Origin: an uncultured Clostridia bacterium
Lineage (GTDB): Bacteria; Bacillota; Clostridia; Christensenellales; UBA1242
Assembly (NCBI GenBank): GCA_947627545.1
Contig: CANQWK010000007.1
Location: 668-64,667 of the forward strand
Reading direction: 5' to 3'
Length of the DNA stretch: 64,000 nucleotides
How positions within the stretch are numbered: position 1 is the first letter of the stretch; every line of letters starts with the position of its first letter. Positions 25,587 through 56,555 of the stretch are shown piece by piece. A model generated the notes under the pieces. It had not been told where the DNA came from. It made no database searches and worked only from the letters and a program-made list of their open reading frames with translations. Made by a program: the position numbers and the translations under genes.

Positions 25587-25596
25587 ATAAATCCTC

Positions 25597-25659
25597 CTAC
25601 AATAAGATTTCATTCCATTTTTTATATTTTATAAAACATATCTTTTTATGTTTGTTCAT
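25597..25659 (-). CDS. Candidate 20-aa leader peptide (uORF) in the metG leader: MNKHKKICFIKYKKWNEILL
   Basis: ATG at 25659 preceded by SD aaaaggag at 7-nt spacing. Its TAG stop (25597-25599) is embedded in the metG SD (gTAGgagga). Confidence 0.35.
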   Translation of the reverse strand: MNKHKKICFIKYKKWNEILL

Positions 25660-25801: not shown

Positions 25802-25878
25802 TGGTTGCGGGGATTGGATTTGAACCAATGACCTCAGGGTTATGAGCCCTGCGAGCTGCCGTGCTGCTCCACCCCGCG
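25802..25878 (-). tRNA. Initiator tRNA-fMet (anticodon CAT), CCA encoded
   Basis: The reverse complement reads CGCGGGGTGGAGCAGCACGGCAGCTCGCAGGGCTCATAACCCTGAGGTCATTGGTTCAAATCCAATCCCCGCAACCA. It has the C1-A72 mismatch, three G-C pairs closing the anticodon stem and a CUCAUAA loop, very close to the E. coli tRNA-fMet pattern. Confidence 0.95.
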
Positions 25879-26152: not shown

Positions 26153-28177
26153 CTAGAATAAATCGTCGTCGTCATCATCGTCTTCATCTGCACCATTTTG
26201 TTTTGCTAAAAGGGAGTTGCGAGATTTAATATCGTAGAAAACTTTGGCTTCGTCTAACAACCTTTTTTGAGAATAAGATGTGCCAATTTTTGTTAAATCG
26301 AAGCATTTATTTAAATAAGCAGGAGTAATGGTTGTTTTTAGTGCAGCATTTGGAGTAAAGGTTTTTATTGCAACTTTACCTTCATCTCTAAATGTTGGCA
26401 ATTGTTCAGGGTAAGCAATTGGAATAGATAAATTTTGACTGCTGTAAGATTTACTTTCTTTGCCGTCTGGTCCAACGCTTTTATTTACATTTTCTTGCAC
26501 AATGGTTTTTTTGCCTAAAAGTTCGCTGAACTCTTTGTTTGTGGTTGTGTCTTCCGATGCAATATAAACTTGAATAGGGCAGTTATCTTTAATGATTTTG
26601 CCTTCGTCTTGACCATAAACCTGATATAATTGGCTATAAGATTGAACGCAAAGTTCAAAGAAAATTCCACGGCTACGACCGACAGTCATAGTAGAACCCC
26701 ATTCAGGGAATTTTGGCATGTTACCAAATTCATCTAGCATAAAGTAAACGTGCCTTTTTAATTCTCCACCTAAACTTTGTGCTTTTTCAACCAAACGTTT
26801 GTACAATTGAGTAACGAACAAAATTGCAAGCGAGTAACGAGTTCTAATTTCATCTGGAATAATTAGGAATATTGCGGTTGGTTTTTCGTCTATTTGAACA
26901 AAATCAACTTCAGTTTTTTCGGTTAAGAAGCAGATACCGGTATCGTTAAACATAACCATTTTGTTAGAAACAAAGCCCATATAGTTTTTTGTTGTGGATT
27001 CTGCATTTTGAAGGGCGGTAGAAGCAAGGTCATGAACCTTAGAAAATTGGTCGCGATAGTTAAACAAATATTGTTTTATTGTGGCATAAGTGTCCCTGCC
27101 ACTATCGGTTATGTTACATATTTTTGCTACATTATAGAAATTAAATTTTTCTCGTGTCATACCAAGTTCTGGAATTCGGCTATCTTCCAACATTGCTATA
27201 ATAACCGCTTTAATTAGGTTTTGTGCGGCCTTTTCCCAGCTTGGGTCCTTGCCTGATTCAATTGGGGCAATGGTGGTACAAGTGTCGTTAATGGAGTCAA
27301 ATGCCTTATCAACTAATTCTCGCGCCAAAACTTTTTGGTCTTGTTCTAATATTTCTTTATCGACATAGGCTTTGCCGTCAAATTCAAACCATGCGTTTGT
27401 GGTAAAATCAAACTGACGTTGAATTATTACATTGTGGTTTTTAGGGTTATCTCCTGCTGGGTGAACTTTAACTTCTTTGTCTAGGTTAAAACTGCGAGTG
27501 TACATATCGTAAGGATAAGTTAGCGGATTCCATTGCACCGAAGCAAACGGCGTACGCAAATCCAACACTTTTACATCGTAACCTTCATTTTTCAATTTGT
27601 TTGCACATAAATTATACAATTCGCCCTTTGGGTCGGTTATAACAAAAGATGGTTTTGCTGCTGTCATGCTCATAAGTTGAAGTGATGGGACTACAAATCG
27701 TTGTGTTTTACCGGCAGATGTTGTTCCTACAACTAAGGTGTGAATTGGTTGAACAAAATTAATTTCGGTGGTGTTGCCTTTAAGTTGTGCACGCACCAAT
27801 ATGCCATCTTTTTTGCAATTTCGCAAAGTTGCAATTGTGTTAGGGTTAAAATCTTTGTTTTTTGCTAAATCTTCATCGGTTAAAAAATCCCTACTAAAAA
27901 ATTGTTTTGTTTCCTTGCCTTTTTCGTCTTTAACCTTATCTTCCGCCTTGCCGGTTTTTTTATCACTTTTGCCGTCTATTAACTTCATAAGGTCAAACAC
28001 CAATAACAAACCTTCGGCAACAAATGTAACAATAAAAGGTATTCCGTCTTTTGTAATGTATGATATATCAAAAGATAACTGCTTGTCTTTTATATAAGAT
28101 GTTGCAAGCACGGCAATAACAAAAATTGCAATTGCACTAATTATATATTTTAAAACTACCTTTCCAAAATGCTTCAT
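26153..28177 (-). CDS. Type IV coupling protein (VirD4/TraG/TcpA-like ATPase)
   Basis: Two N-terminal TM helices, Walker A VVGTTSAGKTQR, Walker B VYFMLDEFGNMP, and a C-terminal poly-Asp tail (GADEDDDDDDDLF). I prefer the ATG at 28177 (MKHFGK, SD aaagga) over the track's 28240. Confidence 0.8.
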   Translation of the reverse strand: MKHFGKVVLKYIISAIAIFVIAVLATSYIKDKQLSFDISYITKDGIPFIVTFVAEGLLLVFDLMKLIDGKSDKKTGKAEDKVKDEKGKETKQFFSRDFLTDEDLAKNKDFNPNTIATLRNCKKDGILVRAQLKGNTTEINFVQPIHTLVVGTTSAGKTQRFVVPSLQLMSMTAAKPSFVITDPKGELYNLCANKLKNEGYDVKVLDLRTPFASVQWNPLTYPYDMYTRSFNLDKEVKVHPAGDNPKNHNVIIQRQFDFTTNAWFEFDGKAYVDKEILEQDQKVLARELVDKAFDSINDTCTTIAPIESGKDPSWEKAAQNLIKAVIIAMLEDSRIPELGMTREKFNFYNVAKICNITDSGRDTYATIKQYLFNYRDQFSKVHDLASTALQNAESTTKNYMGFVSNKMVMFNDTGICFLTEKTEVDFVQIDEKPTAIFLIIPDEIRTRYSLAILFVTQLYKRLVEKAQSLGGELKRHVYFMLDEFGNMPKFPEWGSTMTVGRSRGIFFELCVQSYSQLYQVYGQDEGKIIKDNCPIQVYIASEDTTTNKEFSELLGKKTIVQENVNKSVGPDGKESKSYSSQNLSIPIAYPEQLPTFRDEGKVAIKTFTPNAALKTTITPAYLNKCFDLTKIGTSYSQKRLLDEAKVFYDIKSRNSLLAKQNGADEDDDDDDDLF

Positions 28178-28444
28178 AGATATTCCTTTTAATAAAATAA
28201 TATATACATTATAATTGCATTTTAAAATAAAGTCAAACATTTTTGTATCATTAAGTTTTTGTTTAGGCTGACAAAAAGAAATTCAGTTTTTGCATAATAA
28301 ATTAAAAATAATGCAAAATAATAAAGATTTAAAAAATTTTTAAATTTTTATGCAAAAACAGTTGATTTTAAAATTTTAACTTGTTAGTATAAATACATAA
28401 ATTGACGTAATTTGACATTTTGCGTCGTTTAAAGGGGGAAATTT

Positions 28445-38721: not shown

Positions 38722-41700
38722 ATGAAAAAAAGAGTAATCGTTTCTATTATTATGTTACTATTGGTGTTAGTAGTTGCTGTGCCATCTGTTTATGCAGCAA
38801 CAAAATTTTCTGCACCAAGTAAATATGAAGTTGCTTTTTATAACGAGCAAGAATTGTTTTATAGTTACAAGGCAAAAAGGGGAGAACTTGTAGAATTTCC
38901 TAGCGACTACCCAGACAAACAACATGACAACGAATATTCATACAACTTTTTAGGTTGGGCAGTTGAAGGCACAACAGAAATTATTGATGTTTATACTGTT
39001 GTTGCCAATGTTAATTTTTGTGCAATTTACGAGGCTGAGCCAATTCCGCCTGCAACGGTTACCGTAACTTTTAAAGATGCACCTGAGTTTGGTGGAAAAG
39101 TTTTAGCAACAAAATCGGTTGAAATTGGCGGAACGGTGGAAGCACCTGAGCAACCATATCATTTAGGCTACATTTTTAGCGGCTGGAACAAAGAGTTAAC
39201 CAACATTCGCAGCAGAACAGAAATTGTTGCAGAATATAATAAAAAATCTTACAATTTTGTTAAAAATTATTTAGCGCAAACAACTAATGAAAATTTGCCA
39301 TATAAATCTAACATAAACTTGTCCAATCCAATTGAAGATGATGCACTAATTTTTGAAGGCTGGTTTTTAGATGAAAATTTTGAACACGAATTAACAAACA
39401 CATCTGTTTTAGATGAAACAGTTATTTTAGATGAAAATAATTTTACAATTGAAAAAGAAACCGAACAAATTTCAATCTATGCTAAATTTTCAATAAATGT
39501 ATCAAACCTTTCACTTCAAAAAACAGGAACATTAATTTATGGTGGCAACAATTTAATTTCAGTTGCAGGGCAGTTTAATAAAGAAGGAATTTCTTATTCT
39601 TACACTTGGCAAACTGACGAACAAAATGCGAATTTAAATGCAGCTAGCCTATCAGTAATAGACGCAGGCAAGCACAATGTTTCAGTTGAAATAAATGTTG
39701 AATATAAAGGGTTGCAGGCTCAAACCACACTTAACACAGAAATTGAAATTGAAAAAGCAACATTAACCGCAAATTTAACGGCAAATAATGTTGAATATGG
39801 CCAAAATGTAAATTTTGCATTAAACATTTCTGGCTTTAAATTTAGCGATGAACAAACCTTGCTACAAAAAATTAATGCCAATTTTAATTTAAACAGGTCA
39901 GATTTAAATAATAACATAACAACTTCAAACAAAGCAGGTTCAATTTCCAATTTACCTGTTGGCGAGTATGTGCTAAATGCAAACTTAACATATAATGAAG
40001 TCGATTTAAAAAATTACACTTTTGAAAACGAAAATTTAACTAAAAATGTTAATGTAAATAAAAAGGATTTAACAATATCATTTAAACAAGCAACAAAAAC
40101 AAATTATGTTTATGGCGAGCAACTTTCGTTTAATGAACAAGATTTAGAATTTAGCGGCTTTGTTTCAGGTGAAAGTGTAGAAAATTTAACTTCAAATTTG
40201 GTTTATGAAATTAAGCAAAACGGCGAAAATGTTATAAAATTTAATGCAGGTAGTTATACAGTTGATGTTAATAAAAATTCATATTCTTCAAACAATTACA
40301 ATATAATTTATCCGCAAAGTTTAAACATAACAGTTGCAGCAAAAGATATAACCATAACAATAAATGCAAGCAAATCTAACATAACTTATGGCGAAGAAAT
40401 TGAATTAACAAAATCTTACACAGAATTTGCTTATGCAGAGGACAAATCTGCCTTTGAAAGTTTAAATAGTTACACATTTAAAGATAGTGAACAACAAAGT
40501 TATAGTTTAATAAATCGTTTTGAATGCGGCTCATATTCTGTAGGTTTAAATATAGGAAACATAAACGAAAATGACACATTAAAAAATTATAATATTTCAG
40601 TTGAAGAAGCACAATTTAATGTGGGGAAAAGAGATTTAACAATATCATTTAAACAAGCAACAAAAACAAATTATGTTTATGGCGAGCAACCTTCGTTTAA
40701 TGAACAAGATTTAGAATTTAGCGGCTTTGTTTCAGGTGAAAGTGTAGAAAATTTAACTCAAAATTTTGGTTACGAAATTAAGCAAAACGGCGAAAATGTA
40801 ACAAAATTTAATGTGGGCAGTTATACAGTTGATGTTAATAAAAATTCATATTCTTCAAACAATTACAATATAATTTATCCGCAAAGTTTAAGCATAACAA
40901 TTGCAACAAAAGATATAACCATAACAATAAATTCAAGCAAATCTAACATAACTTATGGCGAAGAAATTGAATTTACAAAATCTTACACAGAATTTGCTTA
41001 TGCAGAGGACAAATCTGCCTTTGAAAGTTTAAATAATTACACATATTTTAAAGATAGCGAACAAAACAGTTACAATTTAACAACTAAATATTTTGATAAT
41101 GGCAAAATTTATGTTGGCTTAAATGTGAATAGCGAAAATGACATATTAAAAAATTACAAAATAACAATTAAAAAGGCCGAATTTAGCGTTCAAAAGCGTG
41201 AATTTAACATTAATTATGAAAAAATCATGAACAAAAACAGGTCGGCGGATTGGAGTTTAGTTCCTCAATTTGAGGGCGAAAATTTAGCATTATTCACTTT
41301 TGAAGGAACACTTAAAATAAACACAACTGAGCAATGTACAATTGAATGTGAAAATGCTAGTGAATTGCCACAATATTTATATTGGAATGGAAACGATTTT
41401 AAAATTACAATCAACGGCGGAAACGGCGAAGATGTTAAAGCAAATTTTGATATAAAATATAGTTTTAACATTGAATTATCTACATTTAATTTCCAATACA
41501 CACCATTAACAAATGTCAACATAGATTATGACGGCGAATCGCATAGTTATCCGCTTGGCGAAGTGCAAATTGCTGACCCTGAAATTGAAGCAGGCGAAAT
41601 AAAAGTTTATTATACATACGTAGTTAAATCAGGCAACGGCGAAAGCAATTTAAACAAAACTGAAACAGCACCATCGTTTGTAAATGCTGGCGTGTATGAA

Positions 41701-44700
41701 ATAAGTTATGAAATTACAGATGGCTACGAAACTGAAACGAAATCATTTACGCTAACAATAAACCAAGCGGAAAATGAATTGCAAAACATAGACGAAATTT
41801 TTACCGATTCGGCGGAAGAAACTGAGCCTAAAATTACAACCAAGCAAAATGAAACAGATGTAACCTATCAATTTACAGGCGAAGAGCATGAAATTAATTT
41901 GCAAAAAATTACCGCTTCGTTTGGTCAAAATGTAAAAATTGAATTGATATCTGCACCTAACAAAATTTTAAATTCTAAAATTAAACTTGCAGCGTTTGAA
42001 GATGTAGATTTATCGGCATTTAAATTTAGCAATGCAGGTGAATATGTATTTAAAATAACGGTTGCAGGAACAGGCAACTATACTGCAATTGAACACACAA
42101 TTAAAATTGTTGTGGAAAAAGCAAACTATGTAGTTAAAGCAGAAGGCATATCGGCAACTTATGACGGCTTAAACAAATTTAAGCAAATAGAAGTTACCGC
42201 AATAGCCGATGAAAAATTTAGTGTAAATTATGGTTTAACCGAGCCTAACTCAGAAACGCTAGAAATTATAAACGCTAGCGATTATACAGTTCATTTTAAA
42301 GTGTTTGGCAACAGCAATTTTAACGATTACACAGGCGAATTTAACATTAAAATTGAAAAATTTGCAATAACTCAACAAAATGTTGTTTTGGCAAATAATG
42401 AATATACCTTTAATGCTAAAAATCAGGGCGAAGGCGTTGAAATAATTAATGTTCCAGCTAGCCAAAATGTAAAAGTTTATTACGGCAACAGCGCTGAAAG
42501 TTGCAACAATTTAACCGCTCCAACTTACAGCAACGCAAATGCTTACACCGTGTTCTTTAAAGTTACAGGAGATGAAAATTACATTGAATTTAGTTCAAGT
42601 TACACAATTAACATTAAAAAATTTGAAATAACAAACCAAAACATTCAAATTCCTGAAAATGTTTTCACATTCAATAACAATTCGCAAGGCGAAGCGGTTG
42701 GCGTTATCAATTTGCCAGATGATGATTATATAATTAATTACACTTACACAGATACAACAGTGCAAACCAGCCAAACTGCACCAAAGTTTATAAATGCAGG
42801 CAGTTACAATGTTAATTTTGAAATAACAGGCAACAATTACACATTCTCGGCAGATAACAGCTACACAATTGTTATAAACAAGGCAAATTATTCGGCGGAC
42901 GCAGTGCCAGAAGCAACATTTAACCAAGATAAAAACATTATTTTAAAATTAGAAAAAGGCACAAAAATTTCTAATTATTTAACATTTAAAAATGAATTAA
43001 TAAATTGGAAAGAAGATTACACTTTGCAAGAAGGCTCAAAAACCTATTATGCAGTTTATAACCTAGATAGCAATAATTATAATGATTATGTTTATGAAAT
43101 AACCTTAACCGCAACTAAACAAACAGTTGAAGTTGATGAAGAAAGTTTATTAAAAACAATGGAAATAAATGTTGGCGAAACTGTTAGCCAAGGTATCAAC
43201 TTAAAAGATGTTAGTGGAACAGTTAAAAATGTTCAAAATTACTCGCAACAAGAACTTACTCACTTAGGCGAAACTATTAAAGTTAATTCAACCGGCATAA
43301 ACAATTCGGTTGGCGGAACTTATATTGTAGAATATACTTTTAAAATTGATAGTGAATATTTCAATTTAGCAAGCAATCAAAAAGTAACAGGCTATTGCAA
43401 AGTTAAATCGGTTAGCCTAGGCACAGATGTATTGTACACAATTGAAGATGCTTTAAACACCGCTGAAAACGGAACAATTACCCTTAAAGCAGACACTAAA
43501 TTTATGAGCAATGAAGATAAGCAAACCCTTAACGATGCAAACATAAATTTATATCAAGGCGAAGGCTATTACACAATAAAATCTGGCGTAAATTTGTTCT
43601 TGCCTTATAATCAAGGCAAAACAACGGTAAACGAAATGGATAGAAACTTTAGGTTGGCTATTGAAACAAAATCTGTTCAGTTAAAGAAGTTAGAATTAAC
43701 AATTCCTGCCGATATAACATTAACAAATAAAGGAACAATTCAAATTGGCGGAATAACAACAGGTGGAAACGGCGGCAAGTCTTATGCCGGACAAACAAGC
43801 AGCGATTATGCTCAAATTACATTAGGCAACAATGCCAAAATTGATAGTTATGGAAACATAGAATGCTACGGCTTTATTGTTGAAGAAAGTAACAATAATA
43901 ATTCTCAGGTTATAATGAACAGCGGCAATTTAACCATGCCATTTGTTGTGGTTGAACATAGAGGAGGCACCAATTTTAAAGACCTTGCTGGTGGATTTTT
44001 GGGGGCTCTTATGGGAAGTTTTAAAGGCGCTCCATTTAACCGATTCTTTATGCAAAACGTTATTGCAAAATTAACAATAAAATCAACTGCAACATTGTTA
44101 GGGCATGCTAACCTTTATGCAGGCGGCCAAGATAATACAACTAATATAAAACTTATAGGTTCAGCAAAAGATTGTTTAATTCAATTAAATGCAAATGCAA
44201 GGGTAGAAACTTATTATCATAACCCTGGCAGAAATATAGATTTAAACATTTTTGGCAATGCAACCATCAATGCGCTATCTTTATCAGTTTCAGGTGCTAA
44301 CATTTCAACAAAAAAAGTTTTGTTCCCAATAACTTGGTATTATAACATTAACTTATACACATTAGAAGGCGAAAGCAGTTCTACAATTAATTCAACAGGC
44401 ATTGAGGGTATAAAATTAATGCCAGGTGCAGCATTAACAATAAATAAAGGGGTAACGCTAAATGTTAAAAAGTTAGCAGTTTACGATAAATTCTCAGGTG
44501 ATAGCCTTGCAAACCCTACTCATTATGAAAATGAAAACACCACTCCTGCAAAATTGGTGGTTAATGGTACATTAGTTGCAGATGCAGTTGGCGGAGAAAT
44601 ATTAGCAGGAGAAACTGGCAATTTGCAAATTAAAGGAAATTCAGTAACTTCTTACGAGGTGGCAGATAGTGCTAAATATGTTGAATTTAAATTTACTTTG

Positions 44701-44778
44701 CAATTAAAAACTGCAACAGGAACAGTTAGCGATGCTGGAAATTATATTGCCGAAAATGGAGTTTGGAGAAAAGAGTAA
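38722..44778 (+). CDS. Giant surface adhesin-like protein (2018 aa): signal peptide, Listeria-Bacteroides (Flg_new) repeats, MBG/YDG-type repeats, C-terminal beta-helix-like domain
   Basis: Signal peptide ending VYA-A. YSYNFLGW / GYIFSGW / IFEGWF repeat signatures. Multiple K(K/R)DLTI...Y(V)YGE...GFV.GE....L MBG-like units. G-rich C-terminus (GGITTGGNGGKSYAG). I saw no LPXTG or other anchor. Confidence 0.8.
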   Translation: MKKRVIVSIIMLLLVLVVAVPSVYAATKFSAPSKYEVAFYNEQELFYSYKAKRGELVEFPSDYPDKQHDNEYSYNFLGWAVEGTTEIIDVYTVVANVNFCAIYEAEPIPPATVTVTFKDAPEFGGKVLATKSVEIGGTVEAPEQPYHLGYIFSGWNKELTNIRSRTEIVAEYNKKSYNFVKNYLAQTTNENLPYKSNINLSNPIEDDALIFEGWFLDENFEHELTNTSVLDETVILDENNFTIEKETEQISIYAKFSINVSNLSLQKTGTLIYGGNNLISVAGQFNKEGISYSYTWQTDEQNANLNAASLSVIDAGKHNVSVEINVEYKGLQAQTTLNTEIEIEKATLTANLTANNVEYGQNVNFALNISGFKFSDEQTLLQKINANFNLNRSDLNNNITTSNKAGSISNLPVGEYVLNANLTYNEVDLKNYTFENENLTKNVNVNKKDLTISFKQATKTNYVYGEQLSFNEQDLEFSGFVSGESVENLTSNLVYEIKQNGENVIKFNAGSYTVDVNKNSYSSNNYNIIYPQSLNITVAAKDITITINASKSNITYGEEIELTKSYTEFAYAEDKSAFESLNSYTFKDSEQQSYSLINRFECGSYSVGLNIGNINENDTLKNYNISVEEAQFNVGKRDLTISFKQATKTNYVYGEQPSFNEQDLEFSGFVSGESVENLTQNFGYEIKQNGENVTKFNVGSYTVDVNKNSYSSNNYNIIYPQSLSITIATKDITITINSSKSNITYGEEIEFTKSYTEFAYAEDKSAFESLNNYTYFKDSEQNSYNLTTKYFDNGKIYVGLNVNSENDILKNYKITIKKAEFSVQKREFNINYEKIMNKNRSADWSLVPQFEGENLALFTFEGTLKINTTEQCTIECENASELPQYLYWNGNDFKITINGGNGEDVKANFDIKYSFNIELSTFNFQYTPLTNVNIDYDGESHSYPLGEVQIADPEIEAGEIKVYYTYVVKSGNGESNLNKTETAPSFVNAGVYEISYEITDGYETETKSFTLTINQAENELQNIDEIFTDSAEETEPKITTKQNETDVTYQFTGEEHEINLQKITASFGQNVKIELISAPNKILNSKIKLAAFEDVDLSAFKFSNAGEYVFKITVAGTGNYTAIEHTIKIVVEKANYVVKAEGISATYDGLNKFKQIEVTAIADEKFSVNYGLTEPNSETLEIINASDYTVHFKVFGNSNFNDYTGEFNIKIEKFAITQQNVVLANNEYTFNAKNQGEGVEIINVPASQNVKVYYGNSAESCNNLTAPTYSNANAYTVFFKVTGDENYIEFSSSYTINIKKFEITNQNIQIPENVFTFNNNSQGEAVGVINLPDDDYIINYTYTDTTVQTSQTAPKFINAGSYNVNFEITGNNYTFSADNSYTIVINKANYSADAVPEATFNQDKNIILKLEKGTKISNYLTFKNELINWKEDYTLQEGSKTYYAVYNLDSNNYNDYVYEITLTATKQTVEVDEESLLKTMEINVGETVSQGINLKDVSGTVKNVQNYSQQELTHLGETIKVNSTGINNSVGGTYIVEYTFKIDSEYFNLASNQKVTGYCKVKSVSLGTDVLYTIEDALNTAENGTITLKADTKFMSNEDKQTLNDANINLYQGEGYYTIKSGVNLFLPYNQGKTTVNEMDRNFRLAIETKSVQLKKLELTIPADITLTNKGTIQIGGITTGGNGGKSYAGQTSSDYAQITLGNNAKIDSYGNIECYGFIVEESNNNNSQVIMNSGNLTMPFVVVEHRGGTNFKDLAGGFLGALMGSFKGAPFNRFFMQNVIAKLTIKSTATLLGHANLYAGGQDNTTNIKLIGSAKDCLIQLNANARVETYYHNPGRNIDLNIFGNATINALSLSVSGANISTKKVLFPITWYYNINLYTLEGESSSTINSTGIEGIKLMPGAALTINKGVTLNVKKLAVYDKFSGDSLANPTHYENENTTPAKLVVNGTLVADAVGGEILAGETGNLQIKGNSVTSYEVADSAKYVEFKFTLQLKTATGTVSDAGNYIAENGVWRKE
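40066..41200 (+). repeat. Tandem 567-bp (189-codon) in-frame duplication inside the adhesin gene
   Basis: Copy 1 starts at gatttaacaatatcatttaaacaagc (40066) and copy 2 at 40633. By eye there are about 20 substitutions over the first ~430 aligned bp, and the last ~130 bp diverge more. Confidence 0.85.
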
Positions 44779-47318: not shown

Positions 47319-50300
47319 ATGAGAAAAAATGTTATTGCCCTTATGTTAATTTTGCCAATTCTGTTGGTGTTTGTTTTGTTTTCGTCTGGGCAAGTTGCTA
47401 GTTTGGGAGTGGTAATCTCTGCAAACGGAATTGAAATTTTGCAAAAGTTTGAAAATGATACTCTTTATTTGGACCTTGCAAAATATAAAAACGATTTTTC
47501 AATTAATGCTCAAGTAAAACCTCAAAATGCAAGCAATAAAAAATATACTTTTTCAGTTGGCCAAATTGAAGGAAGCGACTTTGCCGATGTTAGCGTTAAA
47601 GATGGTCAAATTATAGCCAATTCTCCTGGCATGGCTAAGTTAACTGCAATTAGTAACGATGGCGGCTACACCGACAGCATAACCGTTATTATAGGCAGTT
47701 CAAAGCCGGTTGATGTAGAATTTACTTTAATTTCACAAACAGGGGAACAACAAAATTTATTACAAAGTTCAAATGGGCTTGACGGAACAATAAATTCAGG
47801 CAAATATTCATATATATCAAAAGTTATTCCAAACGGATTTGAAAATGCACAACTAGAAGTTGAAGAAGGCTTTGCAATTATAAATGAAAACGAAAAAACA
47901 ATTTTATTTCCTTTTAGCGGCGAGGTTAAATTAAAACTTACATTAGAAGAAGCACTAAACGGAAAATTAGAAAAAATAATAGACTTAAATGTTCAAAAGC
48001 AACAAACTTCTTCTAATTTTACAATAAATGGAGCTGGTGCAACGGTAATAGGTTTAGAAATTCAACAAACAAGTGCAAGCTTTTATATAGAAGCAGCTGA
48101 AAAGCCAGAAATTGTTTTGTCGGAAGATTTGGTTAATGCAGAAATTGAAACAATAAAAGAAAATTGTTATCTTGCAAAAATTAATTTTAATGCAAATCAC
48201 AATTCAAGCCGTGTAAATGTAAACATTGTTGTTGGCGAAGAGCAAGAAGAAATTATATTTTCATTTATGCCGTTCGACTTTATTGTAAAAAATGAATTGC
48301 CTGTTTTTGATTATGATAATGTGGCAATTACAAAGGGCAAACCTGTAAAATTTTATGCTAGCCCTATAGTTGAAAAACCGGGCGTAACATACAAATGGTG
48401 GGTTAACGAAGAAAAACAAAATACCGTAAATTTGGTTATCAACGAACAAACCAACATCTGCTCGCTAACAGCCAACGAATTAGGCAATTTTAAATTATAT
48501 GTTCAAGCGTTTTATAACAACGTGGAAATGGACGTGTTTATTGTTGAAATTAACATAAATGTGGTGGAACAATTTAACAACGTTCAAATTACAAACAAAA
48601 CCGATGTGGGTTTGGCGGCTCGCACTGTGGTTGCAGGTTTAAAGGCAGACGATAACGGCAGCATAAGTGCAAATAATTATGAAATTAAAATTTTAGCGTA
48701 CAATCAAGGGGAAACATCAAACGATTTGTCCTCTTTTGAAATAAAGGTAAACAACCCAAGTTTGGCAGAAATTAATGTTGAAAATAATGCGGTTTATTTA
48801 ACTCCAAAGGGGGCAGGCGAGGTAGTTGTTAGCGTGGCTTGGTTAGGTAATGATTCTTACAACACCAATGTTAAAACAATGCTTACAATTGGCGTGGACG
48901 CCTCGGCAGTTGAAGTTTCAACAAGCAAACAACTTTTTGCTCAAACAAAAGCAGGAAAAGCAGTTGTTTTGGCAGTAGACATAATGCTAGATGCCGAAAA
49001 TAATAATTATGAAGCTATGCTAGGCACAATGCAATCTACATATAACACCGACTATTACAAACAATTAGGCATAATAGACCAAGCAAAAGTTAAATTTGTT
49101 ATGGAATTTAAAAACAATGTTTACGGAAACGGACATTTTATAAACGCGGAAAACTTTACAAATAGGCAAGATGCATCAGGTAAACCACTTTTATATAAAG
49201 GGCCATTATGCTTTGTTAAGGCAGGCGAACTAGCTTCGGTTGCAGGGCAAGATAACATAGCATTTTTAATGAGAACAAACGGCGTTACTTTATACAATGT
49301 AAAATTGTTAGGTTGTAATGATGAAAGTTTAATAGATGCAAATGGCTATAACCTTTCAAAGTTAGATAATGTAGGAACAACTCTTGACATAAATGCTAGC
49401 GTAAATGTTATAAATTGCCGCATTCAAAACGGAAGAAACGTCATTAGAGTTTATGGCGGAAACAAACAGGGAGATAATTATTTTGTTGATAGTTTAAATC
49501 AGTTATCAACTTGCGAAAATGAGCGTATAAATGTAAACATAAAAGGTTGCCGAATTTCACAAGGAAGGGAATTTTTGCTAAAGATTGGTGCAAACAAAGC
49601 ATTGCGTGCAACAAACGAAGCTGAGCCAGATTTATTAAATGAAAACGGAGAACCATATTCAAACCAAACAAACAATTATTTAAACGATGAATATTTTTAC
49701 AATCATTATGTTTTAACCGATGTAAATTTGCAAGATAGCGTTTTAGAAACTAGCGGATTGTTCTCGGTTGGCATAGAAAGTAATTTTGCCGGAATGTTTT
49801 TGTACAACGAAAATTTTGGCGATTTCACAAAAGGGTGGAATGGTACAGGCGGAACATCGTTTGCATCGGTTCTGCACCTAATTGGCGATGTAAGATTATA
49901 TGATTGGAAAGAACTAAAAAATGTAGATAGCAGCACATTAATTCAATCAGATAGCGCTAATCCACTTTTAAAATTAGATATTGCTCAAATGCTAAATTGC
50001 GTAAGGCAACAAGATATGGCCAATTTTGGAGATATTTTGTTAGAAGTAAAAGAAAACGAAAACAAAGTTTATGTGCATGGCGGAATTGCATTTTATGGTG
50101 GCGGAAAAAATTTAGCCCAATTAGATATGAGTTTGCTAAAAGAAAATTTAAAAGATTTAAAACAATACAATGTAAATATCAGCGTGCTAAAAAATGCCGA
50201 AGATACAAACTTGCAAAATCAGGGTAACATTCTTCCATTGGCAGCTGGTCAACAAGATTTTAGATTTTTCCTTTATAGTGCAAATAGCGGCAATAGTTTA

Positions 50301-50363
50301 GCACAACAAAATCAAACAGACGCTTTAAAATATGACGGCATACAACATTTCTCCGCATTTTAA
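47319..50363 (+). CDS. Secreted or anchored 1014-aa protein with Ig-like (Big_2-type) segments and a C-terminal right-handed beta-helix-like domain
   Basis: SD aggagg; N-terminal signal/anchor; AKLTAISNDGGYTDSITVII and GAGEVVVSVAW Big_2-like strands; NGHFINAENF...LYNVKLLGCND...INCRIQNGRNVIRVYGG pectate-lyase-fold-like turns. Confidence 0.65.
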   Translation: MRKNVIALMLILPILLVFVLFSSGQVASLGVVISANGIEILQKFENDTLYLDLAKYKNDFSINAQVKPQNASNKKYTFSVGQIEGSDFADVSVKDGQIIANSPGMAKLTAISNDGGYTDSITVIIGSSKPVDVEFTLISQTGEQQNLLQSSNGLDGTINSGKYSYISKVIPNGFENAQLEVEEGFAIINENEKTILFPFSGEVKLKLTLEEALNGKLEKIIDLNVQKQQTSSNFTINGAGATVIGLEIQQTSASFYIEAAEKPEIVLSEDLVNAEIETIKENCYLAKINFNANHNSSRVNVNIVVGEEQEEIIFSFMPFDFIVKNELPVFDYDNVAITKGKPVKFYASPIVEKPGVTYKWWVNEEKQNTVNLVINEQTNICSLTANELGNFKLYVQAFYNNVEMDVFIVEININVVEQFNNVQITNKTDVGLAARTVVAGLKADDNGSISANNYEIKILAYNQGETSNDLSSFEIKVNNPSLAEINVENNAVYLTPKGAGEVVVSVAWLGNDSYNTNVKTMLTIGVDASAVEVSTSKQLFAQTKAGKAVVLAVDIMLDAENNNYEAMLGTMQSTYNTDYYKQLGIIDQAKVKFVMEFKNNVYGNGHFINAENFTNRQDASGKPLLYKGPLCFVKAGELASVAGQDNIAFLMRTNGVTLYNVKLLGCNDESLIDANGYNLSKLDNVGTTLDINASVNVINCRIQNGRNVIRVYGGNKQGDNYFVDSLNQLSTCENERINVNIKGCRISQGREFLLKIGANKALRATNEAEPDLLNENGEPYSNQTNNYLNDEYFYNHYVLTDVNLQDSVLETSGLFSVGIESNFAGMFLYNENFGDFTKGWNGTGGTSFASVLHLIGDVRLYDWKELKNVDSSTLIQSDSANPLLKLDIAQMLNCVRQQDMANFGDILLEVKENENKVYVHGGIAFYGGGKNLAQLDMSLLKENLKDLKQYNVNISVLKNAEDTNLQNQGNILPLAAGQQDFRFFLYSANSGNSLAQQNQTDALKYDGIQHFSAF

Positions 50364-50480: not shown

Positions 50481-50509
50481 TTGACAAACTAACAAAAATA
50501 ATGTATTAT
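50481..50509 (+). promoter_or_regulatory. Near-consensus promoter driving the SAM riboswitch
   Basis: TTGACA (50481-50486), 17-nt spacer, TATTAT (50504-50509). Confidence 0.7.
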
Positions 50510-50515
50510 TCAACA

Positions 50516-50648
50516 TATCCATGAAGAGTGGCGGAGGGACAGACCCTATGAAACCACAGCAACCTGCGTTAGTAAGGTGCTAATGTCTGAACGATGGGGT
50601 TTGAATTGTCGATAAAAAATCTCATCGTAACGATGGGATTTTTCTTTT
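50516..50648 (+). promoter_or_regulatory. SAM-I (S-box) riboswitch with terminator/antiterminator expression platform
   Basis: Core AAGAG-UGGCGGAGGGAC-AGACCC-UAUGAAACC-ACAGCAACC...AAGGUGCUAA matches the S-box consensus. Candidate P1 is 50516-50523 with 50607-50614. The terminator is a 10-bp stem (50618-50627 / 50631-50640, loop UAA) plus UUUCUUUU. An alternative 10-bp antiterminator pairs 50592-50601 with 50618-50627. Confidence 0.8.
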
Positions 50649-50678
50649 CACTTTTCATGGAAATTAAAAGGAGTTTTT

Positions 50679-50978
50679 ATGAAAAGTTTAAATGAAATTA
50701 TTGGCAAAGACAGGCACGTTTGGTTTGACATATGGGAGGAAGATTTCAAAGCATTTCTACAATTTGCAAAGGACAATGGTTGTAGGTGGATGAATGGTGA
50801 TGAAATCCAAGTTAATAAAGACCATATCGGTCATCATATGGGCATCAATAAAGATAGGCAACTTGGCTTTGTTTCAATGTGGTGTTGGTTTGCTAAGGCA
50901 AAAAATGAGCCACGCAAAATTAACTTTAAATCATTGTTAGAATTTAGTGATGAGAAAAAAACATCAAGTGATTATTAA
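50679..50978 (+). CDS. Hypothetical Trp-rich 99-aa protein downstream of the SAM riboswitch
   Basis: SD aaaaggag 5 nt upstream of the ATG; 5 Trp in 99 aa (HVWFDIWEEDF, GCRWMNG, SMWCWFAK); no signal peptide; I recognised no motif. Confidence 0.6.
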   Translation: MKSLNEIIGKDRHVWFDIWEEDFKAFLQFAKDNGCRWMNGDEIQVNKDHIGHHMGINKDRQLGFVSMWCWFAKAKNEPRKINFKSLLEFSDEKKTSSDY

Positions 50979-51003: not shown

Positions 51004-51032
51004 TTGACATTATTTGCGTGAAATGATATAAT
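51004..51032 (+). promoter_or_regulatory. Perfect consensus extended -10 promoter
   Basis: TTGACA (51004-51009), 17-nt spacer ending TGa, TATAAT (51027-51032). SD aaggag and the ATG at 51054 follow. Confidence 0.75.
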
Positions 51033-51053: not shown

Positions 51054-52994
51054 ATGGTTATAAGAGGATTTGATGAAACTACAATGAGAAAATCGTTTGA
51101 ATGGTTTTTGCACGACAGTAGTTTATCTTTTGGCGAGCGCAGAACTTTCCAAACAAGGAATGTTCAACATTCAGGAAAGGGTAGCAATGCGAATTTAAAT
51201 GATGAGCAGATGGAAGAAAGCGAAATAGAATTCAAAAATTCTATGGCACTTTTATACTTAAAAACTTTTTATGGCAAAAAGCCAGCCGATTTTAAAACAG
51301 AAGCATATAAAAAAGAATGCGAGAGATTCCGTTCGGTTATTGAATCTAGTCCAAATCCAAGCAGTTTAAATGCAAAAATAGAAAAATGCTTAAGAGATGG
51401 TCATGTTAATTATAATTCAGGAGAATTGCCAAGAAGTGTTTTTTACGAAAGATTAAGCGAAATAGGACTTTCAACAGATGATACAGCTCATAAAATATTT
51501 ATTTCACCAGAGTTTATTACACAGGCAAGAATTTACATCAATCCTTCTCGAAAAGACTATGCTCATTTAATGACTTTTTTATATGAGCGCGCCGCTAGCC
51601 AAGAATTGGCAATTGGAACAAAAACAAGAATGAGTTCAATTGGTGAAAGCAGTCTAGACAATATGATTATCTATACAACGGCCAAAGATTTTCCTAAAAT
51701 TGTTGAAATTTTAAATGAATATGGAAGAATATATCCGGACAAAGTGGCTCAGTTTGGCGATACAATTGAATGTCTTGGCAGAAGTGAACAAGATTGGTTT
51801 GGCTTTGGTTACGACATTCAAAGAGATATTAACGAAGTGTCAACTAGAGGAACATTTAACAACGCTATAGACGATTTGTTTAATAGTTATATTCTTCCAG
51901 CAATAATGTTCGATGATTTCGGCGAAATTACAAGGGAAATGGGAGAGGTTGAATTGACCGAAATTTTCAAGAAAATGTGTAAAGATGAAGATTTAGCGAA
52001 AGAAATTGCCTTGTCTTTGCAAGACCCAATACTTAGAAGAAAGTTTATAAATAATTTTTGCGATTTGACATATTTAAAAGAAAAATCTAATGGCTTTACA
52101 AGAGAAAACGCAAAATTATCTGAGGCGGAAAGAAAGGGTTGTTCACCTGAACAATTAAGATTTAGGGTCGATAATATAAGTGGTTCCGGTCAACCTAATG
52201 ATTTTATTATTTTGAGAAAAGAAAAAATTACCATTCCTTTAAGAGACGGCCGCTCTGTGGTATTTTCGAGGGCTGATATAGCGCAAATAATGAAGAGTAA
52301 TATATTGCGCACCGCTATGGAAAAATTTTATGACACAGAGGCGAAAGTGACTAGGGAAGTATCTCAAATGCTTTGGCTTTGGAAATATTCAGGGAAAAAT
52401 ATGCCTTATCTTAATGATACTTATCCATTTTTAAACAATGATATGGTTAGAGGTATTGAAGAATATGAGGCTTTGGAAACAATGTCAAAATCTGCAACCT
52501 CCAAGACCTCAACGAAAGAATTACCTGAATATGAAAAACAGCCAGAAAGACAGACGATTAAGGAAGGCATAGAAGAAAAACATAAGAGACAAGAGGAAAT
52601 AATCAAAGTCCTTTGCAGTGAAAATTTTCAGATTGCTTCTAAACTATTTAAGATGGGAGTAGCTCCTGAAGAAATGTACAGCTTATCACAAGCCAATATG
52701 GAAGAATTGTTCATTTCAAAAGTTGGTCTTGATAATGTTATTGAAGCAGCTAGTTATGTTAAATCAATAGAAACTGATAAAAACAAATTAAATCATAGAT
52801 ATGAAAACACCTTGCAAGCATTGAGATACAAAAGAGGAAAAGCTTTATGTGAAAAAATTAGGAATTTGCCATCAAAAAAAGAAAGAACTAGCTACGCATT
52901 AACACTATCTCAATATGCAAGAGAAGATGTTATAAAAGCATATCAAATGGAAAAGTGTATAGCGAAAATGGACGAATTTATAAGAAATTTATGA
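51054..52994 (+). CDS. Hypothetical cytoplasmic 646-aa protein
   Basis: Strong promoter and SD; no TM or signal peptide; conserved-looking core (ARIYINPSRKDYAHLMTFLYERAA...GTKTRMSS...LDNMIIYTT) and a K/E-rich helical C-terminal third. I cannot assign a family from the sequence alone. Confidence 0.65.
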   Translation: MVIRGFDETTMRKSFEWFLHDSSLSFGERRTFQTRNVQHSGKGSNANLNDEQMEESEIEFKNSMALLYLKTFYGKKPADFKTEAYKKECERFRSVIESSPNPSSLNAKIEKCLRDGHVNYNSGELPRSVFYERLSEIGLSTDDTAHKIFISPEFITQARIYINPSRKDYAHLMTFLYERAASQELAIGTKTRMSSIGESSLDNMIIYTTAKDFPKIVEILNEYGRIYPDKVAQFGDTIECLGRSEQDWFGFGYDIQRDINEVSTRGTFNNAIDDLFNSYILPAIMFDDFGEITREMGEVELTEIFKKMCKDEDLAKEIALSLQDPILRRKFINNFCDLTYLKEKSNGFTRENAKLSEAERKGCSPEQLRFRVDNISGSGQPNDFIILRKEKITIPLRDGRSVVFSRADIAQIMKSNILRTAMEKFYDTEAKVTREVSQMLWLWKYSGKNMPYLNDTYPFLNNDMVRGIEEYEALETMSKSATSKTSTKELPEYEKQPERQTIKEGIEEKHKRQEEIIKVLCSENFQIASKLFKMGVAPEEMYSLSQANMEELFISKVGLDNVIEAASYVKSIETDKNKLNHRYENTLQALRYKRGKALCEKIRNLPSKKERTSYALTLSQYAREDVIKAYQMEKCIAKMDEFIRNL

Positions 52995-53214: not shown

Positions 53215-53246
53215 TAAATTAATAAAATCGTGTGGGGAGAATTGGT

Positions 53247-56200
53247 ATGAAAAATAAATTTTTTAAAACACTTTTAGTTGCAGGCGTTGTGATTGGAGCA
53301 AGTGTTACGTTGGTAGGCTGCGGAGCGAATAAAAAGAATAATCCACAACCTACATATGAAATTTGCAATTTTGACACTGAGTTCGAATGTAACGAAACTT
53401 TTTCCATGGTGGGTGCAAAACTTAAAATAACCATGCCAGACGGAACGGAAAAAGAAATTGAAATTACAGATGAAATGATTAAAGAAATGCCAGATATGAC
53501 CACTCCAGGAACAAAAAAGGTCATTATTGTGTATGAAGGCGTTGAATATGAAGTAACAATAACAGTGTCTGCTATTGAAAATAGAGCTGAAGAAGCACTT
53601 GGCAAAATAGAATCCTTCTTAGCAGATATGAATACCAAGGACATTAAGAAGTCAAGTTTAAAAATAACCTTAAACGGTGACGCATCATTTTTGCAAAATA
53701 ACGCCGAGTTTAATCAGGAACTTTTAAGCATTGTAACCGAAGCTAGTCAATTAGACCTTAATAATTTTGATGTTTATCAGTCAACTAACGGCACATGGGT
53801 ATGCTATAAAGCGTTTGAAACGGCTGAGGAGATGTTTGCATGCGAGCAAGAAATATGCAAAATGTTTGCCTTTACCGATTTGCACATCGTATTTTTGCTA
53901 AATTGGAAAAACGCACCAGACTTGCAAACTGAACTAATTCCTGAGCAAAAAAATCTAGCATCTCAAATAGTAATTGATATGTCGCCATTTAATAAAGTAA
54001 GAGATTATCATAAAAGAATTGGGTGCGAAACATTTGAAGACTGCAAAGATTTATTACATTTGGTTGTAAATGATTGGCAAACTTTACAGCCACAAAACAA
54101 CAAAATTATTGCTAATTTGCTTGTTTCTAGCCTTATGTTGGTAAAAGACGAGGGCTTAACCACAGGCGTTTACATAAACACCGCAGTTGGCAGGCAAGTT
54201 TATACAAACATTATTAAACTTATCCTTAACGCTTCTGGCCAGCTAAAAAGTGAAAATATAACCGACCCAACAAATTTAAAAGCTAGTGTAGATTTAATTA
54301 AAACATTATCTCAAATAGATGCCAAAGCAACTGCACAACAATTTGTTAATTGGTTAGTTGGCAACATTTTGGTGCAAGATAGCCAAGTTTATGCCGAACT
54401 TGCCACCAACTACTTGGCAGAAATATTTAGCATTCCAACAGAAGACACTGCTCTTGATAATGCTGAGGGAGTGCTAAAAAATGGAATAGATAGTTTAAAA
54501 CAAAATTTTGACCTTAAAACTATTCATGACACAATTGTTGCATTAAACGAGGCATTGCAAGATGCCGAAGGAAATGAATTCTTCCTTGCACAATTAAACA
54601 ATTTAGTTAGTGGCTTAAAAGGCGACTATCAACACATGGCATCTAACATAGCATCTGCATTTAAGAATTTTGCTAGAATTGAAACAAGAGTGTTCCATGA
54701 AACATCAAACAAGAGCGAACTTCAAGACAACCCTGGTGCTGGTGTAAGAAGAGAGTTTGAACGCGAAGAGAACGGAAAATATTATTATTACGATGCAACT
54801 TCTGTTGCTGATGAAGAGAGACTTGTTAATAAATATTTTGATGCACTAACTGATATTATTAGAAGCATTGAAGATGCAATTATTCAAGCCAACGCTAATC
54901 AACAAACCAATGCTAGCCAACAAATCGATGTAAGGGAGTTTGCAAATAGTATTATTGAAAATTTGCGCAAAATGGATAGCGTTATTCAAGAAATGAAACC
55001 ACATGAAGCGGAAGAAGGCCCTAATAAATGGTGGAATGTTGCAGTAACAGATTTAGGCTTTACATTTATAAGAACCGCTGTTGAGCAATATAAACAAATG
55101 TATAACGAACAAATGTTTGACGCACTTTTTGAGGCTATGGGGCACATTTACCCAGCAGATTTTGCCTTAGATACAATGGTTGTTAAAGACGATGGCATGG
55201 AGCCTACAATTAAGAAAGGCCAACGTGTGTTTACAAAATATATTACACATCCTAATGACGGTGATATTAATGTAAATGATATTATTGTAAATGAATATGG
55301 AACATGCGCTAGAGTTATTGCTGTATTTACAGAAGGCGGAAAAATATATTATGTTACCCATGCTGATAATAAGCCTAATACAGACGGAAATACTTACCCT
55401 GAAGGGTATCAATGGGATATTAATAGATTAAATCAACAAAATCTTAGTGTGTCTTGGGTGTACAGCAATTGCCAAAATGTGGTACTTCGAGATAATAGCA
55501 GTGAAGTTTGTGTAGTAGATTTAAGCATATTCCTTCCTTTGCAATTGCCAGAACATCTTATTACAATGTTAACCAACTGCTCAAAGATAATATATGATGC
55601 CTTTAATGTAACCGAAGAACAAATTGACTATGTTCAGTTAATAGAAGACCTTTGCAAACAATTTAAGCTTAAAGCAAAAGACTATGTTGAAAAATATAAT
55701 AATGGTAGTTTGCATTTAATTAGAGATATTGCAGAAAAAACTATAATCAGCTATGAAGACAATTACGAAAATTATGCAGGCGAAGATAGGACAATGTTTG
55801 ACGCTTGCCTTGAAATGTGCGATTGGCTAGATGATGTTATTTTGAAAAAAGAACCATTTAATGTTACAACTTGCCTAGATAAAATCCACAACATTGCTAA
55901 TGAAATGTCAACTTATTTTGGCACACATGAAGAAGAAGCCAATGAAAGACTAAAAATGTTGTTGCCTTTGCTAACAATAATGACTGACACTTCTCAAGAT
56001 TGGCAAACAAACCTTAAAGCATACATTGACGTTAATAAACAAATGATAAGCGGACTTATTGCTCAACTATTCTGCCGCACAATTCCAGACCTTCCTGAAA
56101 ATGGTATGCAAGAATTCTCTAATTTGATTAACACGCACCTTGGCGTATATATTGAGGGTAATTTTAATGTTAAAGCACTAATTAATGATTTTACAACCTT

Positions 56201-56555
56201 TATAAACACTTATGCTAACGAATCTGGCAAAACAATTTATAAATCAGGGTTGGTTTTGGCTATAATTTTATCCAACATCAACAACCCAGATGTGAATTAC
56301 AGTGAATTATTTGAAGGAATAGAACTTCCTAACGAAATTGAAAATATAGGTTTTGATGTACTAATAAGGCAAACTTTACGAGATAAAGATGTTTATAAAA
56401 ATCTTATTGTTATTGAAAATGTTGAAATTCAATTTGTTGAGGATGCAAATGGCTCAATCAAAGAAATTATGACATTGACAATTAAATCAAATTACGACAT
56501 TTTAATTTCTTCAATGGATGCAACCACCACTCTAACATTTGAACTTGAATTTTAA
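53247..56555 (+). CDS. Giant lipoprotein (1102 aa) with an embedded catalytically inactive S26/S24 signal-peptidase-like domain
   Basis: Lipobox LVGC after MKNKFFKTLLVAGVVIGASVT (ATG at 53247, SD ggggag). The internal segment VVKDDGMEPTIKKGQRVF...NDIIVNEYGTCARVIAV parallels SPase I G-D-S-M-x-P-T...GDIVV...KRVIG, but has Gly for the Ser nucleophile (55194-55196) and Ala for the Lys general base (55308-55310). Confidence 0.7.
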   Translation: MKNKFFKTLLVAGVVIGASVTLVGCGANKKNNPQPTYEICNFDTEFECNETFSMVGAKLKITMPDGTEKEIEITDEMIKEMPDMTTPGTKKVIIVYEGVEYEVTITVSAIENRAEEALGKIESFLADMNTKDIKKSSLKITLNGDASFLQNNAEFNQELLSIVTEASQLDLNNFDVYQSTNGTWVCYKAFETAEEMFACEQEICKMFAFTDLHIVFLLNWKNAPDLQTELIPEQKNLASQIVIDMSPFNKVRDYHKRIGCETFEDCKDLLHLVVNDWQTLQPQNNKIIANLLVSSLMLVKDEGLTTGVYINTAVGRQVYTNIIKLILNASGQLKSENITDPTNLKASVDLIKTLSQIDAKATAQQFVNWLVGNILVQDSQVYAELATNYLAEIFSIPTEDTALDNAEGVLKNGIDSLKQNFDLKTIHDTIVALNEALQDAEGNEFFLAQLNNLVSGLKGDYQHMASNIASAFKNFARIETRVFHETSNKSELQDNPGAGVRREFEREENGKYYYYDATSVADEERLVNKYFDALTDIIRSIEDAIIQANANQQTNASQQIDVREFANSIIENLRKMDSVIQEMKPHEAEEGPNKWWNVAVTDLGFTFIRTAVEQYKQMYNEQMFDALFEAMGHIYPADFALDTMVVKDDGMEPTIKKGQRVFTKYITHPNDGDINVNDIIVNEYGTCARVIAVFTEGGKIYYVTHADNKPNTDGNTYPEGYQWDINRLNQQNLSVSWVYSNCQNVVLRDNSSEVCVVDLSIFLPLQLPEHLITMLTNCSKIIYDAFNVTEEQIDYVQLIEDLCKQFKLKAKDYVEKYNNGSLHLIRDIAEKTIISYEDNYENYAGEDRTMFDACLEMCDWLDDVILKKEPFNVTTCLDKIHNIANEMSTYFGTHEEEANERLKMLLPLLTIMTDTSQDWQTNLKAYIDVNKQMISGLIAQLFCRTIPDLPENGMQEFSNLINTHLGVYIEGNFNVKALINDFTTFINTYANESGKTIYKSGLVLAIILSNINNPDVNYSELFEGIELPNEIENIGFDVLIRQTLRDKDVYKNLIVIENVEIQFVEDANGSIKEIMTLTIKSNYDILISSMDATTTLTFELEF

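Follow-up and report, generated by a model that had tools for sequence, protein, structure and literature searches.

The S-box leaders of Bacillus subtilis, such as those of metK and yitJ, combine a SAM-I aptamer core, a K-turn consensus, and a pseudoknot between the P2 loop and J3/4 with a terminator/antiterminator OFF switch in which P1 serves as the anti-antiterminator. We analyzed a leader that is alike in all these respects, located at positions 50481 to 50978 of a 64,000-nucleotide stretch (hereafter the window) of contig CANQWK010000007.1 from an uncultured Clostridia bacterium, where a promoter and a riboswitch for S-adenosylmethionine (SAM) precede the gene of a 99-residue protein. 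The leader differs from its B. subtilis counterparts in having no P4 and a three-way rather than a four-way junction, in adding a conserved segment after the terminator that is predicted to pair with either the ribosome-binding site (RBS) or the 5' end of the aptamer, and in regulating an undescribed small protein. We put the probability at about 60% that this protein is an accessory domain of the SAM synthetase MetK, acting in trans in the organism of the window. Three features, all seen by sequence comparison with relatives, lead us to this reading: control by the riboswitch is obligate, the gene is translationally coupled to metK, and near-linkerless fusions to MetK recur.

Loss or relocation of P4 with retention of a SAM-I-like core is a feature of SAM-I variants with a short or absent P4, of SAM-IV (RF00634), and of SAM-I/IV variants (RF01725), the last of which have been described previously (PMC2864571). 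SAM-I/IV variants lack the P2 internal loop, whereas the window aptamer has one, and the 3' P4/PK-2 of SAM-IV is not evident in the window leader. The known P4-less SAM-I group belongs to the Actinomycetota (PMC12714719), while the type found in the window occurs in Clostridia and in phages of Clostridia. Natural SAM-I aptamers whose P4 is short or absent are reported to remain functional, albeit with lower affinity (PMC12714719); the missing P4 thus makes the window aptamer a variant without disqualifying it.

Unlike S-box metK operons, the window has no metK; in its relatives, the same leader precedes metK either directly or via the small gene. As far as we know, the MetK of bacteria is regarded as an enzyme that works alone and is regulated by its expression level and by product inhibition. 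Eukaryotic methionine adenosyltransferase has a regulatory beta subunit, MAT2B, of ∼330 residues with a short-chain dehydrogenase/reductase fold. MAT2B provides a functional analogy, being a noncatalytic partner of a SAM synthetase as we propose for the 90-residue alpha/beta domain, but the two have no sequence or fold relationship. Streptococcus agalactiae 12/111phiA is one documented case of prophage-borne metK (PMC8223999). The riboswitch class, P4-less SAM-I variants, and phage metK are therefore already known. The databases and literature searched contained no description of the protein family, of SAM-I control throughout it, of its members being fused to MetK, of phage SAM-I-metK cassettes, or of a platform in which terminator and RBS control share a strand; the literature searched also contained no metK operon with such an extra open reading frame (ORF) and no N-terminal extension of MetK.

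A P4-less SAM-I riboswitch with a putative two-part expression platform

The elements of the cassette, all on the forward (+) strand, are as follows.

50481-50509, + strand: sigma-70-type promoter (-35 TTGACA at 50481-50486, 17-nt spacer, -10 TATTAT at 50504-50509; 11/12 consensus matches)
50516-50600, + strand: SAM-I (S-box) aptamer without a P4 helix (RF00162 match)
50518-50522 with 50594-50598, + strand: aptamer helix P1
50528-50557, + strand: aptamer helix P2, carrying the K-turn consensus
50558-50581, + strand: aptamer helix P3
50540-50589, + strand: aptamer pseudoknot (P2 loop CAGA at 50540-50543 with J3/4 UCUG at 50586-50589)
50592-50627, + strand: antiterminator of the SAM-free state (P1 3' strand and flank, 50592-50601, with the terminator 5' arm, 50618-50627)
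50615-50648, + strand: intrinsic terminator of the SAM-bound state (13-bp stem, 50615-50627 with 50631-50643, UAA loop, U-rich tail)
50649-50660, + strand: post-terminator switch segment CACUUUUCAUGG, complementary to the aptamer 5' end at 50519-50530
50667-50673, + strand: RBS AAAGGAG, separated from the ATG by 5 nt; the fold constrained to the bound state pairs it with the 50649-50660 region
50679-50978, + strand: gene for a 99-residue alpha/beta protein of an unnamed family (core residues 1 to 88; lineage-specific tail, 89 to 99)

An original prediction, made from the letters of the window alone, had proposed a near-consensus promoter, an S-box aptamer, mutually exclusive antiterminator and terminator helices, and a well-initiated ORF for a protein with 5 Trp residues. 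Each of these proved correct. The predicted transcription start (∼50516) coincides with the first base of the aptamer, and two relatives (L017 and L073; L and P numbers denote loci and proteins, respectively, and A numbers denote alignments) have equivalent TTGACA/-10 promoters at the same distance from theirs. When scanned with cmscan, the aptamer scored 58.1 bits against RF00162 (E = 7.4e-11), passing the gathering score of 44.4, and it was the sole riboswitch match in the 64 kb. P4 is wholly missing: the cmscan alignment deletes 17 P4 model positions, with an 8-nt linker in their place. P4 is likewise missing from the leaders of all relatives.

Covariation was counted in an alignment of 18 distinct homologous leaders (A4). 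In the SAM-bound structure (P1, P2, P3, pseudoknot, and terminator), 91.9% of cells were paired and 11 pairs had changed on both sides, a value reached by none of 500 shuffles (0/500); sliding the partners by one to three columns lowered pairing to 34 to 43%. The aptamer helices were 87 to 100% paired, with compensatory changes in P1, P2, P2b, and P3, and the pseudoknot was 100% paired, with three of its four pairs covarying (e.g., CAGC/GCUG in L001). On this comparative evidence, positions 50516 to 50600 are a genuine SAM-I riboswitch of a P4-less variant, conserved as a switch.

The terminator hairpin was present in every aligned leader (18/18), and its 3' arm repeats the sequence of the P1 3' strand, CGAUGGG. 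The antiterminator lies where the original prediction had placed it; across the 18 leaders, it was 89.1% paired with five pairs changed on both sides. Terminator and antiterminator are mutually exclusive and have a strand in common with P1, as in transcription attenuation.

A conserved segment also stands directly 3' of the terminator in every leader. In the window, this segment (CACUUUUCAUGG, 50649-50660) can form 12/12 pairs with the 5' end of the aptamer (CCAUGAAGAGUG, 50519-50530), and in relatives 8 to 12 of the 12 pairs can form. The resulting long-range helix was 87.5% paired in A4 and contained three pairs with double changes; for example, CCAUG/CAUGG in the window lineage is CCAUA/UAUGG elsewhere. 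The duplex was found in 39/41 distinct leaders, a set that includes phage leaders directly preceding metK (median, -12.5 kcal/mol; z = -5.15 versus shuffles), and it is contained in the unconstrained minimum free energy fold of the full window leader (-54.3 kcal/mol; z = -4.36). Forcing P1 and the terminator in the fold of the window leader instead gave a hairpin that buries the Shine-Dalgarno sequence (SD) and the AUG, and predicted folds of most relatives likewise offer the post-terminator segment an alternative pairing with the SD and start codon. Taken together, covariation and predicted energies suggest that SAM may control both transcription and translation. We infer that 50649-50660 acts as an anti-SD when SAM is bound; in the absence of SAM, the P1 5' strand would be free to neutralize it.

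SAM-I leaders accompany the family in every testable lineage

Loci of relatives were fetched by protein identity or similarity; the sample is therefore not biased toward riboswitches. An RF00162-type riboswitch lies upstream of the small gene in all lineages for which roughly 170 nt or more 5' of the gene is available (21/21: the window, L001, L006, L010, L017 to L020, L022 to L026, L028, L029, L031/33, L034, L036, L037, L039, and L073). Scores of the relatives against RF00162 ranged from 46.8 to 58.9 bits, with L073 judged by sequence pattern rather than by Rfam, and the aptamer starts at a fixed distance of ∼165 to 190 nt before the start codon. At L009, a partial riboswitch match is cut by the contig end. 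The riboswitch-associated homologues span 24 to 86% identity, and two of them (P0059 and P0040) are only 24 to 31% identical to the window protein. The tandem-duplicated member P0074, encoded at L073, has a promoter, a P4-less aptamer, and a terminator upstream.

An unannotated family of small alpha/beta proteins

The window gene is well initiated, with GGAG five bases before its ATG, and encodes 5 Trp residues. A word-indexed search returned six clusters of close relatives, and an exhaustive search yielded 88 representative clusters (50% identity) at E ≤ 1e-3, mostly of 83 to 125 residues, every member of which is called a hypothetical protein in its source record. The description of the protein as an orphan therefore does not hold, as it belongs to a family of at least 88 clusters. 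Other searches extended the family little: a metagenome scan added just five loci, and a profile search (A2) of the word-indexed database gained little. The family had no match in GenBank phages or PLSDB plasmids, and protein-pattern scans of IMG/VR with A1 and A3 retrieved none.

Values of dN/dS between the window gene and its relatives were 0.03 to 0.09, which indicates strong purifying selection. From a 59-sequence alignment, AlphaFold2 (AF2) predicted a compact alpha/beta domain over residues 1 to 88, opening with a beta-alpha-beta-beta-beta arrangement (predicted local distance difference test [pLDDT] score, 90.3). The 99-residue protein and its relatives yielded no usable family in Pfam, NCBIfam, PHROGs, or PADLOC (none at E ≤ 0.01 in the PHROG and PADLOC searches), and no similar fold was found for the model in the Protein Data Bank (PDB), where the best Foldseek E value was 1.8. 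In BFVD, only uncharacterized phage proteins were retrieved, and these weakly (TM score of about 0.55; E ≥ 6e-3).

Two candidate identities were rejected. The weak similarity to FosB, a metallothiol transferase of the vicinal oxygen chelate (VOC) group, is local, covering ∼45 residues where a beta-alpha-beta-beta-beta module begins (NCBIfam E = 0.008, PDB profile E = 0.02). It scores 16.3 bits against a cutoff of 300, Foldseek supplies no PDB structural match, and the family has no conserved metal ligands; this identity was dropped. The possibility that the ORF is a fragment of MetK was ruled out, as it has no Pfam match to PF00438, PF02772, or PF02773 and the MetK domains of a natural fusion (P0067) begin only at residue 94.

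Some family members (P0022, P0074, P0075, and P0091) are tandem duplications of the ∼90-residue domain within one polypeptide, which hints that the single-domain proteins may act as dimers.

The small gene adjoins metK and is repeatedly fused to it

In about half of the lineages (L001 to L009, L020 to L023, L025, L027, L028, and L030), metK lies directly 3' of the small gene, at a distance of 0 to 4 nt or overlapping it; the stop and start codons examined are separated by 1 to 3 nt or overlap as ATGA. Several of these metK-linked loci are phage genomes with TerL, HNH, primase, and ParB-N6 DNA methyltransferases.

The two genes are also found as one. In Christensenella sp. UBA7862, the small domain and MetK form a single ORF of 457 to 461 residues in a chromosomal neighborhood. 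Among the best 120 matches to the fusion protein P0067, at least 21 distinct clusters (90% identity) are fused, with lengths of 447 to 479 residues and on contigs of up to 815 kb. In many Clostridia, the small domain occupies the MetK N terminus, and in repeated cases there is almost no linker between it and the first strand of MetK; other Clostridia and their phages encode it as a separate gene with translational coupling to metK. Junctions vary among ...LLENETHFETSESV, ...ILGDKMIRIVTSESV, ...YLAENGEIVTSESV, and long NMNKYSYSG linkers, and fusion therefore probably happened several times. In P0067, the Pfam MetK domains run from residue 94 onward, which marks the small domain as an addition to MetK rather than a part of it. 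The original prediction had proposed a link to SAM or methionine metabolism of an undescribed kind; adjacency to metK and fusion to MetK, along with the riboswitch in 21/21 lineages, strongly support that proposal. It had also placed the small gene behind the riboswitch instead of a methionine or SAM gene. No metK was found over the 64 kb of the window, but this wording understates the link, as the gene travels with metK itself in relatives.

In some of the fused MetKs (A7: P0146 to P0152 versus P0156), the linker contains the exact N terminus (MNKYSYSGNVKTS...) of an unfused MetK. An internal start codon in the fused metK could, judging from these sequences, give long (domain-bearing) and short MetK isoforms from one gene. 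The MetKs encoded at L001, L006, and L020 to L030 and those in A7 form a distinct short subfamily (∼360 residues) in which several cysteines are conserved and an unusual GGGCFSSKNATKVDRSG motif occurs; this subfamily is common to Clostridia metagenome-assembled genomes (MAGs) and their phages, at 64 to 84% identity.

The same leader in phage contigs

A pattern search for the P4-less aptamer retrieved 31 IMG/VR contigs. The leader is followed directly by metK in 17/31 contigs and by a divergent branch of the small-protein family in 8/31 (six assigned by hidden Markov model and two, L042 and L066, by alignment). Comparison of A2 with an alignment of this divergent branch (A5) gave an hhalign probability of 97.7% (E = 2e-12), and the two are thus homologous. 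The remaining six contigs (L045, L051, L053, L065, L067, and L069) have other ORFs after the leader, of 76 to 372 residues and with no assigned function; the leaders of these contigs include the terminator and post-terminator segment. Profile comparison detected no relationship between the family and the ORFs of L065/L069 and L053. The P4-less variant is, in sum, a SAM-supply module of phages and Clostridia, with the small protein as one main cargo but not the only one.

Proposed mechanism

In the reading we prefer, the locus is a self-contained SAM-OFF cassette with a single small gene behind a promoter and a P4-less SAM-I riboswitch. At high SAM, the aptamer would bind it, P1 would close, the terminator hairpin (50615-50643) would form, and transcription would stop; in any full-length mRNA made under this condition, 50649-50660 would fold back onto the RBS. 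When SAM is scarce, the P1 3' strand would pair with the terminator 5' arm to form the antiterminator, and polymerase would read through. The freed P1 5' strand would then capture 50649-50660, leaving the SD and AUG open. The lone 99-residue protein would most likely act in trans on the MetK of the cell, raising or stabilizing SAM synthesis under SAM limitation. By the OFF logic, it would be made at low SAM, the same condition that induces MetK. Physical binding to MetK is presumed here, as is the direction of the effect.

A broader proposal, which we advance tentatively and rate at somewhat under even odds, is that the ∼90-residue domain regulates the SAM synthetase of bacteria as a subunit or domain that has gone unrecognized. 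In gut Clostridia, it would be fused, operon coupled, or acting in trans. Phages of these bacteria, whether or not they encode a metK, would carry the domain downstream of a P4-less SAM-I riboswitch acting on both transcription and translation, and would thereby control the SAM pool of the infected host.

A MetK accessory domain under SAM riboswitch control would, if real, add a new layer to SAM homeostasis and give a function to an unannotated family that gut Clostridia (Christensenellales-like MAGs) and the phages of these bacteria commonly encode. The riboswitch-gated SAM-supply cassettes carried by gut phages bear on how phages may supply SAM to DNA methyltransferases of their own and so escape restriction. 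As a natural SAM-I aptamer, the leader is compact and has a three-way junction; it appears to link termination with masking of the RBS by means of one shared strand, which makes it useful as a model and possibly as a synthetic-biology part.

Weighing the alternatives

Several observations weigh against a role as a MetK partner. In about half of the lineages, the window included, no metK occurs within the DNA seen, and the divergent phage branch sits among structural genes without metK. The same riboswitch type precedes unrelated small phage ORFs; riboswitch control alone is thus no proof of a MetK role. Residues conserved across the family belong mostly to the hydrophobic core (F26, W37, and I43) and form no functional motif, a pattern that also speaks against a conserved catalytic site. 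In the AF2 model of a natural fusion, the N-terminal domain retains its fold (pLDDT, 88 to 92), but with a predicted template modeling score of 0.73 the model gives no firm indication of how the domains dock. Finally, the affinity of SAM-I aptamers drops as P4 gets shorter (PMC12714719), and the window aptamer has none.

It is unlikely, in our view, that the small protein has an activity of its own in SAM, methionine, or sulfur metabolism, as a ligand-binding protein or a VOC-like dimeric enzyme or carrier, with its proximity to metK reflecting a shared pathway rather than regulation of MetK. The weak match to the second module of FosB, the beta-alpha-beta-beta-beta start of the AF2 model, the tandem duplications (as expected of a unit that works as a dimer), and the stand-alone state of half of the lineages all fit such an activity. 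Set against them are the absence of a VOC or other PDB fold among the Foldseek results, FosB scores far below curated cutoffs (16 bits versus 300), and the lack of polar or metal-binding residues conserved throughout the family; moreover, repeated independent fusions to the first strand of MetK with almost no linker are better explained by a structural partner. Somewhat less likely still is a phage-derived moron that manipulates SAM-dependent processes of the host during infection or lysogeny (restriction-modification, BREX, or MetK as a target), the window copy having been domesticated or left over in a mobile island. Close homologues do occur in phage genomes near TerL, HNH, and ParB-N6 DNA methyltransferase genes, the P4-less leader is present in 31 IMG/VR contigs, and the divergent phage branch is homologous (hhalign, 97.7%). 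P0038 is encoded upstream of a Fic gene and then a type I HsdM methylase gene, and the window copy is preceded by a tRNA and a TraG/VirD4 gene. The family nevertheless has no PADLOC or PHROG match and is missing from the GenBank phages and plasmids searched, and expression at low SAM only fits the control of supply, not attack. Fused MetKs reside on chromosomal contigs of 0.2 to 0.8 Mb among housekeeping neighbors, which implies that the domain serves the cell's own MetK.

We consider it very improbable that the small ORF is incidental, with the riboswitch controlling the downstream 646-residue gene by read-through or with the terminated leader acting as a small RNA. Terminated S-box leaders that act in trans are known in Listeria, and no terminator was detected between 50978 and 51054, both of which would suit such a scheme. 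The low dN/dS values and the confident AF2 fold of the small protein speak for a functional product, however, and the family is conserved down to 24% identity, always with the riboswitch. The 646-residue gene has a 12/12 promoter of its own and is not found next to the small gene in L017/L018, and the next gene is on the opposite strand in L036, L037, and L039. The MetK accessory reading remains the one we prefer.

Neighborhood of the window copy

The features that follow the cassette are listed below.

51004-51032, + strand: independent promoter of the next gene, outside the cassette (12/12, extended -10)
51054-52994, + strand: next gene, 646 residues, no known family

The perfect promoter assigned to the next gene in the original prediction was confirmed, and the surroundings of its relatives support the suggestion that control by the riboswitch is limited to the small gene. 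L017/L018, from uncultured Clostridia and encoding proteins 84 to 86% identical to that of the window, have different neighbors; a functional link between the small gene and the 646-residue gene, which is not syntenic in these nearest relatives, was ruled out. Because neighborhoods are unrelated between relatives, with next genes in some even on the opposite strand, the unit of selection appears to be the promoter, riboswitch, and small gene. Some read-through from the cassette into the 646-residue gene could still occur.

The window is chromosomal, with genes for YchF, TyrRS, FtsH, MetRS, and a tRNA, and identical copies of its small gene with the same neighbors are present in several rabbit-gut assemblies. 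Genes for large surface-type proteins and ABC transporters flank the small gene, in a stretch that may be an island. A tRNA with anticodon CAU (25805-25878, minus strand) is located between the MetRS gene (23946-25613) and a gene for a TraG/VirD4-type conjugative coupling protein (26153-28240), and the riboswitch cassette may be held in an integrated element flanked by this tRNA.

DNA downstream of the tRNA encodes giant surface-type proteins without Pfam families, two ABC transporter pairs, and a helix-turn-helix (HTH)-plus-Fic protein (58956-59864). The HTH-Fic gene is ∼8 kb downstream of the window copy; at L034/L035 (3437-6604), the P0038 gene directly precedes a Fic-domain gene, with a type I restriction-modification HsdM methyltransferase gene after it, a parallel that may be coincidental. 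Three large ORFs at 38722-44778, 47319-50363, and 53232-56555 (2018, 1014, and 1107 residues, respectively) are interleaved with ABC-2 transporters, and their only matches were to the Ig-like domains Big_2 and Big_3, along with a weak signal-peptidase-like stretch.

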